Position numbers and translations under genes: made by a program | In this document: in pieces, positions 7,246 through 13,138 of the stretch | How the letters are laid out: every line of letters begins with the position of its first letter | Position numbering within the stretch: position 1 is the first letter of the stretch | Notes under the pieces: model-generated | What the model was told of the DNA's origin: nothing | What the model saw: the letters and a program-made list of their open reading frames with translations, nothing else | Database searches by the model: none | Virus record (IMG/VR): IMGVR_UViG_3300017777_001247 | Span: 1 to 33,359 of that record | Direction: 5' to 3' (one strand) | From: a virus | Lineage: Duplodnaviria > Caudoviricetes | DNA: 33,359 bases

Positions 7246-8043
7246 TTATTCAATAGCGTCCTCCAAGTCTGCAAAGGTATCTACACCTTGTTTGGCTGCT
7301 ATAAATTGTGTCTTGGTCACAGCGTCCATGCGCTTAATTGCATCAGCGTTCCCCGCCTCCCAAGTTTTTCGCTTTTCTGACTTTTCTTCCTTCTTTAGCT
7401 TCGGCGAATTCTCGATAGCGTCCAGCATGGCTACATAACGCTCAATGTAGTCTTGCCAGTTCGTGCAATTAGCGTAAACGCTACCGTCAGGCAGGAATAG
7501 CTGATACTCGCTTACCGGTTCCTCAATAACGATTTCTGCTTCGCCCATGTCCTTGACTGTCTGGCTAGGCGTTTTGAACGTCTCAACTTCCTCTGGCGTG
7601 TAAACGCCAACGACGCACGACGGATAGACTGTTCTAACCCCTTCGCTGACGCATCTGGCTCTGAGCATAGCTCTGGCGTAATTCTTCCAGTTATCCTTAG
7701 ACGTAAGTCCAATTCTCTTTGCCATCTCGAATGTCCAAGTGACAGTAACAGACCCGCCATTGGGGTGAGAAAAAGTACCAATAACTCTTTCATCCGTGTA
7801 TTCCTCCCATTTGACTGAACCACCGGCTTGCTGGAAACGTCCAAGCATGGCATCAGCCTTCAAAGCAGGACGTCCTTGTATGACATGAAAATCCCTCATA
7901 GCAATAGCAGGGTGCATATTTTCAGCTTGACAGAGAAGCATAATTGCCATTGCTTCCTCAGTCGATTTAAAGCCGAACATCTTCGACTTGGCTGCTACTT
8001 CAGCCATCTCTCTTATTTCTGTAATCGGTACTAAGGCGGTCAT
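7246..8043 (-). CDS. ssDNA-annealing recombinase, RecT/Red-beta superfamily
   Basis: HVIQGRP, W..Y...ML.AR...R..YP and GVYTPEE motifs; downstream of a YqaJ exonuclease. Confidence 0.8.
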   Translation of the reverse strand: MTALVPITEIREMAEVAAKSKMFGFKSTEEAMAIMLLCQAENMHPAIAMRDFHVIQGRPALKADAMLGRFQQAGGSVKWEEYTDERVIGTFSHPNGGSVTVTWTFEMAKRIGLTSKDNWKNYARAMLRARCVSEGVRTVYPSCVVGVYTPEEVETFKTPSQTVKDMGEAEIVIEEPVSEYQLFLPDGSVYANCTNWQDYIERYVAMLDAIENSPKLKKEEKSEKRKTWEAGNADAIKRMDAVTKTQFIAAKQGVDTFADLEDAIE

Positions 8044-8259: not shown

Positions 8260-9162
8260 TCACTTGAGTAAGAAGCGGCGAGAACCTGCCGTTTCCGAGA
8301 CAAACTTTTCGTAAAGGTCGGGTTGTTGGGCTTGGAATAACTTAGCGTCGAATCGTTTGCTGCCTTTGCTGTTTTTCCATGTTGCGAGAACTTTTCCATC
8401 GTAAGATACTAGCTCACTCGACCATTGCATATGGTTTTGCAAAGCTGTTAAAAGGTGTTCTTCCTTTTCTTCTAGCCGCTTGATTTCTTCCTTAATGAAC
8501 TTGAGTGCTTCGGCTGCTTTCTCAATGGGCTGTATGGCAACGATAGATGTCCCAGCGTCTTGAGAATAAATAAGTTTTGTCTGCTCCGTGTTCTCTGGCT
8601 CAAGTGGCTGTTTGGTAGCGACTGCACTCCAGAAACGTGCCATATCCTTAATAAGCGATTCCTTTTGGGCTTCAGAAATTGTAAATTCAAACGTCTCAAA
8701 ATTCTGGCCGCCAAAGAGGACAGCGAGTACAATTTTCTCAACATTGTGAACTGCCGCTTCGTGGATAATTTGCGCCATGTCTGCCGGAGGGATAATGTTC
8801 GCTTCCGAATCAAACTTGTTGCGAACCGCTGCGTTGTAGTTTTTGGCTTCCACCAGCGTTTTGCCGTCAGCAGAGATAAAATCGAAATGTGATTTGAGCC
8901 ACGTTTCTTTCGGATGTGTAAGTGCATAGTCAGCGTCCTTTAATTCAATCTGTAGCTTGTCCTGCGCCAGTCTGCCAATTGTTGGCTGCATTACATGACC
9001 CATTTGGACAGCTTCCACTTGAGACAGGTCTGGACGCTCTTTCAAGCCTAGCTTTTCAAGAACAGCTTCATTGCCCCTGCCGTTGGCTGCTTTCCTACTG
9101 TCACCGCTCCACCATGCGCTATTGCGTACCTCTGGCGCGAAATCGTTCTGGTCATTTGCCAT
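8260..9162 (-). CDS. YqaJ-like viral exonuclease (lambda Exo family)
   Basis: GH..Q, SHFD and LVEAKN nuclease motifs; C-terminal SKRFD...PDLYEKF...SRRF. Confidence 0.9.
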   Translation of the reverse strand: MANDQNDFAPEVRNSAWWSGDSRKAANGRGNEAVLEKLGLKERPDLSQVEAVQMGHVMQPTIGRLAQDKLQIELKDADYALTHPKETWLKSHFDFISADGKTLVEAKNYNAAVRNKFDSEANIIPPADMAQIIHEAAVHNVEKIVLAVLFGGQNFETFEFTISEAQKESLIKDMARFWSAVATKQPLEPENTEQTKLIYSQDAGTSIVAIQPIEKAAEALKFIKEEIKRLEEKEEHLLTALQNHMQWSSELVSYDGKVLATWKNSKGSKRFDAKLFQAQQPDLYEKFVSETAGSRRFLLK

Positions 9163-9374
9163 TATTTATCTCCACAAGTTAGGAATAGTAATTCTGCGAA
9201 TAATTTAATAATTTTGTCCTGCTTACCTACTTCTGCTTCCAACGTTGCTACTTGGTCACGCAACTGCATATTTTCACTAAATAAACTCTGTAAATTCTTG
9301 TTCTGTGTTGCTTCAAATGGCCTAAGTAGGTCTTCTACGCTTAGTGCCTTTAGGCTCTCTATTGGGGTGTTCAT
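9162..9374 (-). CDS. Hypothetical coiled-coil protein
   Basis: GGAGA RBS; heptad pattern; coupled to neighbours. Confidence 0.7.
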   Translation of the reverse strand: MNTPIESLKALSVEDLLRPFEATQNKNLQSLFSENMQLRDQVATLEAEVGKQDKIIKLFAELLFLTCGDK

Positions 9375-9616
9375 TGGGTTTCTCCACGGATGTTAGGAAA
9401 TAGTGTGTCTGGAAATAGCGCAGCAAGGTCATAGGTGACAGGCTCCATTGGTTCAAACAATAGTGCTTCGGTCTTACATAATTGGGAATCAAGACGCATA
9501 ACTGCTGCGGCTTCTGTGCGGACACCGCCTTCAACTAGGTCAATGCCAGTTATGGGGTTGTGACACTTACGGCCTTTGAGATACTTACAGTCAATGCAGA
9601 GCTTTGGTTCACTCAT
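9371..9616 (-). CDS. Hypothetical Cys-containing protein (CxxC)
   Basis: AAAGGGG RBS; first gene after the promoter at 9652-9680. Confidence 0.75.
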   Translation of the reverse strand: MSEPKLCIDCKYLKGRKCHNPITGIDLVEGGVRTEAAAVMRLDSQLCKTEALLFEPMEPVTYDLAALFPDTLFPNIRGETQ

Positions 9617-9651
9617 TGTTTACCCCTTTGATGGTTAGGAAATACAGTAGG

Positions 9652-9680
9652 ACTATATACATTATTTGGATTATGTTCAA
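9652..9680 (-). promoter_or_regulatory. Sigma70-type promoter for the recombination operon
   Basis: TTGAAC-17 nt-TATAGT on the minus strand. Confidence 0.7.
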
Positions 9681-9710
9681 TATCTTTTTTCACCTCACTT
9701 TCTTTTAGTC

Positions 9711-9964
9711 ATAGCAAGGGCTACGTATAGGGATGATGATGAGTCATGCCGATACTTCAACCCATTGGTTGTCCGCATTAGTAATGCGTTCCGCTGCTTT
9801 ATTTATCGGGCGATGTTTCTCGTCATCCCTGACGCTCTCAATCAGCCTATTAGCCCGTTTATCGCTTGTGGCGGCACACTCGCGTACCCGTCCCCCTTAA
9901 TCAAGGTAAACCGCTTTTATCCCGTGCTGGCACAGTCAGGCCACTTGCTATCGTGCGGGGTACG
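9711..9964 (-). ncRNA. Putative large structured non-coding RNA with pseudoknot
   Basis: At least 9 complementary segment pairs, nested plus one crossing; no credible ORF; downstream of the promoter at 10092-10120. Confidence 0.6.
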
Positions 9965-9982
9965 GTAAACGCTTTGGGCAAT

Positions 9983-10085
9983 AAAAAAAGCCAGTTACAA
10001 CTGAGTCCGGTGATGGTTCCCCTCAATCGATGGGGAGACAGACTCATGTGTAACTGGCTTCTATTTATCGACCATCACGTCAACA
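9983..10085 (-). ncRNA. Leader/attenuator RNA (C4/CI-like architecture) ending in an intrinsic terminator
   Basis: Perfect 12-bp stem 9988-9999/10049-10060 followed by U7, with inner stems. The bulge ACCAUCAC is complementary to the 5' hairpin loop GUGAUG(GU). Confidence 0.65.
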
Positions 10086-10091
10086 AATGCG

Positions 10092-10120
10092 AATCTACGT
10101 GCGCGGGGGTGAATTGTCAA
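10092..10120 (-). promoter_or_regulatory. Strong sigma70-type promoter driving the non-coding region
   Basis: TTGACA-17 nt-TAGATT on the minus strand. Confidence 0.8.
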
Positions 10121-10230
10121 TCAGGAGGCGTTAAAAAAGTCCACAGAATCCATGCAACTATCGTCAAAAGCATTACGCCCATACCCATAAATATCCCCCC
10201 GACTAAAATTGTGAATAAACTAGCAAGCAT
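10117..10230 (-). CDS. Small single-TM membrane protein (37 aa)
   Basis: ATG at 10230 overlaps the end of the upstream ORF; almost entirely hydrophobic. Confidence 0.55.
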   Translation of the reverse strand: MLASLFTILVGGIFMGMGVMLLTIVAWILWTFLTPPD

Positions 10231-10462
10231 TTTTAGCTTTTTCTGCTTTGATTTCAGCAATAGGACGCCAACCGAACTTTCTCCAAGTGCGCGTGACATC
10301 AGTATTATTGGCAGGAATCCACTCTCGACCTTCTAAAATGCCTAAAGACGGACTAACAGAGCTTGCCAGTAATTCTACGTCTCTTATCGTCTCTAATCGT
10401 TTAAATACCCGATTCTGAACTTCTAGTTCAATATCAATCATTGCGTTTTTTAATTTACCCAT
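10220..10462 (-). CDS. Hypothetical phage protein (TDVxxTWRKFGW motif)
   Basis: AAAGGGG RBS; motif recurrent in phage early regions. Confidence 0.75.
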   Translation of the reverse strand: MGKLKNAMIDIELEVQNRVFKRLETIRDVELLASSVSPSLGILEGREWIPANNTDVTRTWRKFGWRPIAEIKAEKAKNAC

Positions 10463-12588: not shown

Positions 12589-12616
12589 ATTATATAGATT
12601 AGATAGGTTATGTCAA
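12589..12616 (-). promoter_or_regulatory. Consensus sigma70 early promoter
   Basis: TTGACA-16 nt-TATAAT on the minus strand with AT-rich upstream DNA. Confidence 0.85.
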
Positions 12617-13110
12617 CGGTAAATTATATTGTATTTATTTATTGAATACGTATAAACCATAGTATCTACATATCATAGTTACTATATATATATATAGTAA
12701 GGATATATCTATACATAATCTACTTATACTGTAAATGATATATATTAAGCATGCCTATTCTTTAAGCGGATAGGGTCAGTGATTGTTAACTCTCTCCCCG
12801 CTTGGATTTAACAATTGGCTTGGGGCATTGGGGCAGCATCAACTCTACGCATACACACTACTACTGGCAGTCTACTGGTCTACCACTGGCACTCATTGGG
12901 TATTGGGTAGGGGTAGACAGCTTGCATCTGATACCCAGTTCCTAGCTGGCTTTTCAATTGGTCTTCAAGGGCTTGGAGTGCGTGCCCCTTTCATCTTCCA
13001 CCCCAAAAAAAATATGTGTTTTTCTGTAGTTCTGATAATCTTTACTTGAATCGTTGTGATTCTCCTTCGGTGTTGGCTGCACATTGTTTCTCGCTTAGTG
13101 CAGTCATTTG

Positions 13111-13138
13111 GCCCATCTCTTGTAGGTGGGCTTTTTTT
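13111..13138 (+). terminator. Rho-independent terminator
   Basis: GCCCATCT-cttgt-AGGTGGGC followed by T7. Confidence 0.8.

Follow-up and report, generated by a model that had tools for sequence, protein, structure and literature searches.

The minus strand of IMGVR_UViG_3300017777_001247, an IMG/VR virus record of 33,359 b that is analysed here in its entirety (the window; estimated completeness 94%), carries at positions 9711–9966 a structured, pseudoknotted non-coding RNA of about 256 nt. This RNA, which we call type A, represents an uncatalogued family on freshwater phage contigs, and at least five other RNA types, interchangeable with it, occur in the same position between a conserved promoter/leader/terminator unit and the genes for a Cys-rich protein, RecE and RecT. 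An earlier note, made from the sequence of this DNA, had described a non-coding, pseudoknotted RNA of about 255 nt at 9711–9964 and had offered three views of its nature: an RNA-primed replication origin, a ribozyme or another large phage RNA. The existence of the RNA is borne out by its homologues, and the last of the three views is now supported, there being a conserved family with strong covariation, G-U pairs on the sense strand and no coding signal.

Homologues and distribution

Loci around relatives of the RecE-like gene contain the element at 74–100% identity, and alignments of the homologues reveal long invariant blocks together with visible compensatory changes. Two exact-motif patterns matched 17 and 33 stretches in IMG/VR, and the second of them matched 86 stretches in metagenome contigs; a motif pattern had no match among 185,579 species genomes (one genome each). 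Together the fetched loci hold 153 copies, and the distinct full-length copies number 93. In this collected set 87 of the 256 positions are invariant, 24 of the 87 being fixed by the search pattern, and because the copies were gathered with exact-match motifs their conservation is overstated and the range of the family understated.

The Rfam search proposed in the earlier note found no family: none of the 4227 models of Rfam 15 reached its gathering score anywhere in the window, and at E ≤ 10 over 9500–10250 there was only noise, with nothing above 14 bits across the element. Among 50,697 phage records, which include the cultured and deposited phages, neither the element nor the type C RNA described below has a DNA match, and the only related records are two from uncultured 'Bacteriophage sp.', recognised through their RecE-like gene. 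One of these, GenBank MW202753.1 (locus L227), contains from 937 to about 1215 a diverged type A copy that the motifs had missed. Its annotation places a hypothetical-protein coding sequence (CDS) at 784–1215, across both the leader and the diverged RNA; this is probably a spurious open reading frame (ORF).

Conserved fold of the type A RNA

The fold was derived from alignment A5 (MAFFT), which comprises 88 of the 93 distinct full-length copies, and from anchor-based pair tables that do not depend on an aligner, the table for H1–H5 covering the 74 copies parsed. The RNA index i equals 9993 minus the coordinate. The elements, with the evidence for each, are as follows.

9711–9966 (−): type A cassette RNA, about 256 nt (boundaries from alignment of 88 distinct homologues)
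9908–9966 (−): domain 1, the shared 5′ module (covariation and covariance model R1)
9956–9959/9921–9924 (−): H1 (covariation)
9948–9955 (−): lone pair 9955/9948 closing the loop ACGAUA (covariation)
9940–9943/9928–9931 (−): H2, with loop CUGACUGU (covariation)
9904–9908/9885–9889 (−): H3, closing the loop that bears the G tract (covariation)
9894–9902 (−): G tract AAGGGGGAC (sequence)
9894–9899/9715–9720 (−): pseudoknot a–d, UAAGGG (part of the G tract) with CCCUUG (covariation)
9882–9884/9863–9865 (−): H4 (covariation)
9877–9879/9868–9870 (−): H5, parted from H4 by a GA/AA internal loop (covariation)
9853–9857/9807–9811 (−): H7, enclosing segment b and the H-type pseudoknot S1/S2 (covariation)
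9846–9850/9727–9731 (−): pseudoknot b–c, AUAGG with CCUAU (covariation)
9831–9834/9821–9824 (−): S1 (topology count in variants)
9825–9827/9812–9814 (−): S2 (topology count in variants)
9783–9788/9774–9779 (−): H9 hairpin, longer in most homologues (many stem variants)
9767–9771/9758–9762 (−): H10 hairpin (covariation)
9732–9739 (−): invariant AUCAUCAU, adjoining segment c (alignment)
9749–9755/9725–9731 (−): candidate alternative pairing e–c, competing with b–c (weak)

On A5, 93.2% of the cells of the consensus fold (domain 1, H3–H5, H7, H9, H10 and the three pseudoknots) are paired, compared with 81.4% in shuffled controls (none of 500 as high) and 34.6–45.3% when the partners are slid by one to three columns. 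Thirty of the 58 pairs change on both sides, and the covariation score of 0.332 compares with 0.131 for shuffled and 0.05–0.07 for slid partners.

The individual helices are supported as follows. First, domain 1 is nearly uniform in pairing, with H1, the lone pair and H2 paired in 99–100% of cells and six of their nine pairs changing on both sides; the anchor tables likewise give essentially 100% pairing for H1, the lone pair and H2–H5, each with covarying positions. Second, the central helices are equally well kept: H3 is 100% paired in the 88 copies with two covarying positions (CG/UA and CG/GC), the H4/H5 hairpin (9863–9884) is 100% paired with AU/GC and GC/UA covariation, and the pairing of H7 is unbroken, both in the 90 copies of its anchor table (three freely covarying positions) and in 88 of 88 on A5, where four of its five positions covary. 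H10 is 96.8% paired, with GC/AU/CG covariation. Third, the 3′ tail folds back on two internal G-rich segments, forming pseudoknots a–d and b–c. The two parts of a–d are 94–95% paired, with compensatory changes in L094, in the L129 type and in the L061 type; the variable pair of b–c is GC in 46 of the 88 copies, AU in 28, GU in ten and CG in one, and is unpaired in two. The diverged L227 copy keeps b–c as AAGA/UCUU and lengthens the helix by GAUGAUGAU/AUCAUCAUC, an extension that suggests a role for the invariant AUCAUCAU. Finally, the S1/S2 topology can be formed by 18 of 25 distinct variants (84 of 92 copies) using ten stem combinations, a result attained by 53 of 1000 shuffles. Pairing on A5 is lower for S1/S2 and H9 (76–85%, H9 itself 76%), because MAFFT misaligns columns between subtypes. 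Conserved junction strands (GAUAAAC and GAUAAAUAAAGCAG) are also present.

Segment c has a second potential partner. The e–c helix reaches up to nine contiguous pairs in some subtypes and has six of seven pairs, with one mismatch, in the window; in a control, a copy's own e and c segments form on average 5.6 bp and segments crossed between copies 4.8 bp. It is a weak candidate for an alternative conformation. A pairing of CGGGU with GCCCG, proposed by RNAalifold from 14 sequences, proved to be a mispairing, the anchor tables giving H3 and H7 instead.

Covariation among homologues is thus found, though largely for other helices than those first proposed. The two hairpins described at 9758–9771 and 9774–9788 are the covariation-supported H10 and H9, and the G-rich tract noticed on the minus strand is AAGGGGGAC. 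A hairpin described at 9867–9878 falls within H4/H5, but in a register that is off by one base and is not kept in homologues. The long-range pairs 9718–9723/9851–9856, 9729–9736/9823–9830, 9749–9754/9804–9809, 9883–9889/9958–9964 and 9711–9718/9944–9951 are not kept in homologues, nor is a hairpin at 9895–9906 that is complementary in the window. These unsupported pairs are formed in 64.5% of cells on A5, the same as the shuffled mean of 64.5% (a level reached by 237 of 500 shuffles), and their covariation score, 0.093, is close to the 0.087 of the shuffles; where they compete with H3, H7, a–d or the lone pair it is the latter that covariation follows. In particular, the pairing of the domain 1 loop with the 3′ tail (9711–9718/9944–9951) is incompatible with the lone pair 9955/9948, which covaries, and neither L094 nor the commonest subtype keeps it intact. 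The label of pseudoknotted RNA therefore holds, but for the knots 9894–9899/9715–9720, 9846–9850/9727–9731 and 9825–9827/9812–9814 rather than the one drawn earlier.

Strand, coding potential and folding energy

G-U cells greatly outnumber A-C cells in the anchor tables (102 to one, or 28 to one without the invariant U-G pair), and we therefore take the RNA to be read from the minus strand, like the neighbouring genes.

A protein-coding gene, or a structure arisen by chance, can be practically dismissed as an explanation of the element, in spite of several features that would fit such an explanation. In the commonest subtype one sense frame is open throughout (19 of the 93 copies are stop-free, and the median longest open stretch is 297 nt), a CDS is annotated in MW202753.1, the plus strand of the window has a 100-codon ORF with a TTG start at 9666–9968, and z-scores for the folding energy are weak. 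However, the column entropies at the three codon positions are 0.60, 0.59 and 0.50, such that the third position is the least variable; two to seven stops interrupt the sense frame in the window type, as in four further subtypes; length differences between copies are not multiples of three; no protein family is matched; an 18-bp hairpin and a run of seven to eight U residues would fall inside the putative ORF; and covariation is far above the controls. Element 9711–9966 is no protein gene, in agreement with the earlier finding of no credible ORF, and the conserved coding signature that had been named as grounds for rejection is seen neither in entropy nor in stops nor in indels.

The folding energy behaved otherwise. 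An energy no better than that of shuffled sequence had also been named as grounds for rejection, and this is formally what RNAfold returns (z = −0.79 for the minus-strand sequence, z = −1.62 for the plus-strand one). The minimum free energy (MFE) fold disagrees with the covariation fold, and the MFE test is uninformative for a pseudoknotted RNA; folding energy is thus a poor criterion for type A, and it is covariation that marks the element as more than chance.

A slot for interchangeable RNA types

Type A is not the only occupant of its position. Across 80 RecE-linked loci, the slot that follows the U run contains type A in 16, type C in 12, type D in ten and type B in four, with 28 other or unrecognised and ten whose upstream sequence is too short. 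Type C is the Rfam family Betaproteobacteria-1 (RF02932) with a 3′ extension, and types E and F, neither of which matches Rfam, were found among the 'other' loci. The slot in sister phages thus contains at least five other structured-looking RNAs, of 250–330 nt. Loci assigned to these types are:

Type B: L010, L018, L051
Type C: L013, L014, L029, L050, L225/G001 contig 22 (RF02932 score)
Type D: L006, L017
Type E: L072–L081
Type F: L063, L066

A covariance model built from the 5′ domain of type A (R1) has one copy in the window, at 9908–9966 with 78.6 bits, and in 37 of the 80 RecE-linked loci, of types A, B, D and E, it has a single copy that always lies on the same strand as RecE. There is no R1 match in type C and F loci, and R1 matches 74 of the 86 metagenome loci. 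In the L139 contig two domain 1 RNAs stand in tandem (an E-like copy at 1019–1076, then a type A copy at 1340–1399), and between near-identical phages the RNA types are exchanged without other changes.

A contig from a betaproteobacterial metagenome-assembled genome has the same gene order with RF02932, and RF02932 is present in one of 151 genomes sampled from Betaproteobacteria; these two observations hint, weakly, that the hosts are probably Betaproteobacteria.

The upstream promoter, leader and terminator

Directly upstream of the RNA lies a compact unit with the following parts.

9983–10120 (−): upstream unit, with a leader of about 105 nt (promoter scan and comparison of leaders)
10092–10120 (−): sigma-70-like promoter TTGACA-17-TAGATT, −35 at 10115–10120 and −10 at 10092–10097 (promoter scan)
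10067–10084 (−): small hairpin HP-A (leader comparison)
10072–10078 (−): segment a, in and beside the HP-A loop (a/a′ complementarity)
9990–10058 (−): long hairpin, arms 10041–10058 and 9990–10007 (leader comparison)
10010–10016 (−): segment a′, in the internal loop of the long hairpin (a/a′ complementarity)
9983–9989 (−): U7 run after the long hairpin (sequence)

The promoter, leader and U7 hairpin directly precede the RNA in 68 of 70 distinct upstream sequences (the L094 copy has neither leader nor terminator). Segments a and a′ are exact 7-nt reverse complements in all 68 leaders, with 20 different 7-mers, and a control 7-mer gives 0 of 68. The a/a′ helix is hypervariable between near-identical phages, which suggests that it is a specificity determinant, and, judged from its sequence, the leader could be a kissing-loop attenuator or a small RNA with diversified specificity.

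No strong terminator-like structure other than the U7 hairpin is seen from the early promoter at 12616–12589 to the recombination genes, and for this reason the RNA and the recombination genes are probably expressed by regulated read-through. On the minus strand past the RNA there are only weak terminator-like sites until 5135–5115. The earlier claim that the element is reached only by read-through thus fits the anatomy of the leader and terminator, and stands as a prediction from that anatomy.

The phage and its early operon

The plus strand of the window encodes structural and lysis genes (terminase-like, SU10-type portal and adaptor, holin and peptidase), and the minus strand a leftward early operon that runs from the promoter at 12616–12589 down to about 5370 and includes a GP88-like gene, numerous small ORFs, a RecE/YqaJ-like exonuclease, RecT, an SSB-like protein and RusA. 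The RNA sits in a 500-b stretch of this operon that is without a credible ORF, upstream of the RecE and RecT genes. The features named in this section are:

12589–12616 (−): early promoter with perfect sigma-70 consensus TTGACA-16-TATAAT, probably the main early leftward promoter (promoter scan)
9613–9693 (−): first ORF downstream of the RNA, 26 codons, GTG start (ORF list)
8260–9162 (−): RecE/YqaJ-like exonuclease gene (family match)
7246–8043 (−): RecT gene (family match)

The stop of the 26-codon ORF overlaps, as ATGA, the start codon of an 81-aa Cys-rich gene (9371–9616, minus strand). The Cys-rich protein has no family match, and the small proteins beside the RNA are without a Pfam or PHROG family. 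The suggestion that the element ends just before a promoter is doubtful: the promoter-like site, 9680–9652, falls within the 26-codon ORF, and in most homologues a ribosome-binding site (RBS) and start codon come straight after the RNA. The next start codon is 22–146 nt past the RNA and the genes that follow differ between phages (a DNA methyltransferase-like ORF, small ORFs); the Cys-rich gene (81–88 aa) and the RecE-like gene are always within about 1.5 kb downstream. No conserved DNA segment was found downstream of the RNA among the homologues compared.

Other features of the neighbourhood may be recorded. Two minus-strand ORFs overlap in different frames at 10117–10299 and 10220–10462, one encoding a 60-aa hydrophobic product and one an 80-aa product, and relatives have a conserved membrane-like protein of about 60 aa (MIKFKP...PRTL..AFP) directly upstream of the leader. 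In L108, L117, L110, L134 and L116 a small conserved protein (about 47–70 aa, ..EA..LL...K.G...P..I..AL..TGD) is often found immediately after the RNA; it matches no Pfam or PHROG family, and the window lacks it. A hairpin with a T7 run is located at 13110–13132 on the plus strand, and ARAGORN finds no tRNA or tmRNA gene in the window.

Family searches of the window proteins recognised no replication, integration or reverse transcriptase gene: in this 94%-complete 33-kb phage the DNA polymerase, helicase, primase, initiator and integrase all go unrecognised, and the sole recognised set is that of the RecE, RecT, SSB-like and RusA recombination genes. The earlier note had drawn on the lack of a replication gene, correctly observed, in proposing an RNA-primed origin on the model of ColE1. 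On this view the folded transcript would stay hybridised to its template and be processed to a primer in the manner of ColE1 RNA II. The lack of a replication gene is a weak argument for an origin. The promoter-driven, untranslated transcript with a G tract and hairpins, and the hypervariable loop-loop pairing of the leader, which recalls incompatibility determinants, also speak for an origin, but we consider this explanation very improbable. The G tract at 9894–9899 is paired with 9715–9720 in the same RNA, with compensatory changes; no plus-strand promoter-like site is present in 9700–10100 (by a simple consensus scan, which leaves absence unproven); the downstream DNA is not conserved; unrelated RNAs fill the slot in near-identical phages; a tandem copy is found in L139 and a copy without the leader in L094; and cumulative GC skew, a check that the earlier note had proposed, has no turn at 9.7–10 kb within the stretch profiled.

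Possible roles of the RNA

The reading that we favour, tentatively and with slightly less than even confidence, is that the 9711–9966 RNA is a self-contained folded module recognised by a partner (a protein or a small ligand) and made on read-through, and that it is not a replication primer. The RNA would be made only when polymerase reads through the hairpin/U7 terminator, which would thereby gate its dose, and the fold would be recognised early in infection by a host or phage partner, serving as a decoy, a sponge or a component of a ribonucleoprotein (RNP). An autonomous module is suggested by the swaps between near-identical phages, the tandem pair and the independence from the next gene. 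Likewise the swapping, the tandem stacking, the varied next gene and the use of the G tract in intramolecular pairing all disfavour both an origin and a gene-specific riboswitch. As to the latter, the RNA has the conserved, covariation-supported fold of a riboswitch, but only the fold, since there is neither an expression platform at a fixed place nor a coherent gene set, and no terminator follows the RNA.

Several points weigh against recognition by a partner. First, collection by exact motifs overstates conservation and hides diverged members such as L227, and kinship of the sequences inflates the shuffle statistics, the slid controls being the fairer comparison. Second, the evidence of expression consists of low-depth contigs of relatives, from one RNA library and several probable DNA libraries, over parts of 9330–10250, and these contigs do not show strand, ends or level. 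Third, the partner is a postulate. Fourth, the RNA does not end in a terminator and in most phages forms the 5′ untranslated region of the next ORF, so that a role in cis fits equally well. Finally, alternation between b–c and e–c pairing, if real, is typical of a switch.

The main rival is accordingly a cis-acting control element of the delayed-early operon, acting by processive antitermination as do HK022 put and Bacillus EAR, by protection from Rho or RNase, or as a ligand-driven b–c/e–c switch; it is the main rival because the RNA lacks its own promoter and terminator and may switch, and we regard it as a real, if doubtful, possibility. The RNA is always on the strand of the downstream operon and directly before it, it is placed right after the sole strong terminator between the early promoter and RecE/RecT, and both competing partners of segment c show some matching changes. 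Related lambdoid phages also exchange antitermination modules. Nonetheless, the RNA comes after the terminator and not before it, with only weak terminator-like sites left to overcome before 5135–5115; the variable distance to differing genes provides no fixed expression platform; the RNA is far larger than put or EAR elements; and both the L139 tandem and the high turnover of types would be odd for an element acting on a conserved host polymerase.

A self-processing ribozyme, cleaving or ligating so as to free the RNA or the downstream mRNA from the read-through transcript, seems clearly improbable. The type A RNA resembles a ribozyme in complexity and conservation: 87 of its positions are invariant, it contains three pseudoknots, and strands at its junctions are conserved. 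If the RNA is released its ends must arise by processing, because neither a promoter nor a terminator belongs to it. Yet no known Rfam ribozyme family is matched, no ends are visible in the contig data, and there is no candidate cleavage site.

A more far-reaching form of the module recognised by a partner, and one we think rather unlikely, is that the interchangeable ornate RNAs of these freshwater, probably betaproteobacterial, phages are RNA-only anti-host effectors, sponges or decoys directed against defence, whose dose is set by a diversified RNA attenuator. The loop-loop helix of the attenuator, with at least 20 specificities, would then be a determinant resembling those of immunity or incompatibility.

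Significance

Large RNAs with such conserved tertiary structure are rare and have repeatedly proved to be ribozymes, riboswitches or RNP cores. In type A there are three pseudoknots and 30 covarying pairs, and some 60 positions are invariant without having been fixed by the search pattern. The natural variants of this uncatalogued family are numerous enough for its structure to be determined. The genetic setting is also clear, the RNA occupying a swappable slot of the early operon behind a kissing-loop terminator that covaries and probably gates it. The orphan family Betaproteobacteria-1 gains a context in the same slot, and public annotation at present places spurious hypothetical proteins over such RNAs. 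Should the cassette RNAs prove to be effectors aimed at the host, or a regulatory device of a new kind, they would open up a class of phage functions based on RNA.

Comparison with known systems

ColE1 RNA II is a long, folded, untranslated and promoter-driven transcript with a G-rich segment, alternative pairings and variable loop-loop determinants near its 5′ end. The type A transcript is also long, folded, untranslated and G-rich, with an alternative pairing and a variable loop-loop interaction in its leader. It differs in that no antisense RNA I gene is found (by consensus scan), its G tract is engaged in an intramolecular pseudoknot, no origin DNA is conserved downstream, and the cassette is swapped and can stand in tandem.

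The HK022 put sites (about 70 nt) and the Bacillus EAR element (about 120 nt) are cis-encoded structured antitermination RNAs in long operons, and they need no dedicated gene to act. Type A shares with them the position of a structured RNA in cis within a long operon, and, as with the phage modules, exchange between relatives; unlike them, it is two to four times larger and lies after a strong terminator, with no strong intrinsic terminators following.

The GOLLD, ROOL and raiA RNAs resemble type A in general character, being, in the portion of PMC5737381 consulted, ornate, pseudoknotted and conserved RNAs of unknown function associated with phages or prophages and with lake metagenomes. They are roughly 200–800 nt long compared with 256 nt for type A, which matches none of their Rfam models, and GOLLD and ROOL have tRNA-proximal contexts (PMC5737381), in contrast to type A, which stands behind a regulated terminator within an early operon. 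Fremin et al. 2023 (PMC10690425) described structured RNA candidates from intergenic regions of IMG/VR of 29–151 nt (mean 67 nt), which share with type A the data source and the use of covariation as evidence; four type A motif words are absent from the six supplementary files searched, a set that does not extend to the large alignment files. The part of the Minerva preprint consulted deals with RNAs linked to reverse transcriptases only and does not mention type A. The family is thus undescribed in Rfam, in the literature searched and in the consulted parts of PMC5737381 and PMC10690425, whose big motif supplements lie outside this coverage and may list fragments of it. Type A is an orphan ornate phage-associated RNA for which we found no description, and we do not claim that it is unpublished; the architecture of the slot and the leader with its covarying kissing loop are apparently undescribed as well.

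Betaproteobacteria-1 (Rfam RF02932), which belongs to the motif set of Weinberg et al. 2017 and is of unknown function, shares its setting with type A. A literature search on its name returned unrelated papers only, and the main text of Weinberg et al. 2017, the part covered by the search as distinct from its supplement, is silent on it. RF02932 has no match in the window at its threshold of 49.4 bits, and sister loci score 88–97 bits; the model covers just the first 120 nt of the type C slot RNA of about 250 nt. There is no sequence or structural likeness between Betaproteobacteria-1 and type A, and RF02932 loci are without domain 1. Nonetheless, Betaproteobacteria-1 is likewise a structured orphan that few genomes contain, and in sister phages it occupies the same slot: a promoter, a kissing leader and a U-run hairpin of the same kind precede it, and the Cys-rich and RecE-like genes lie downstream.

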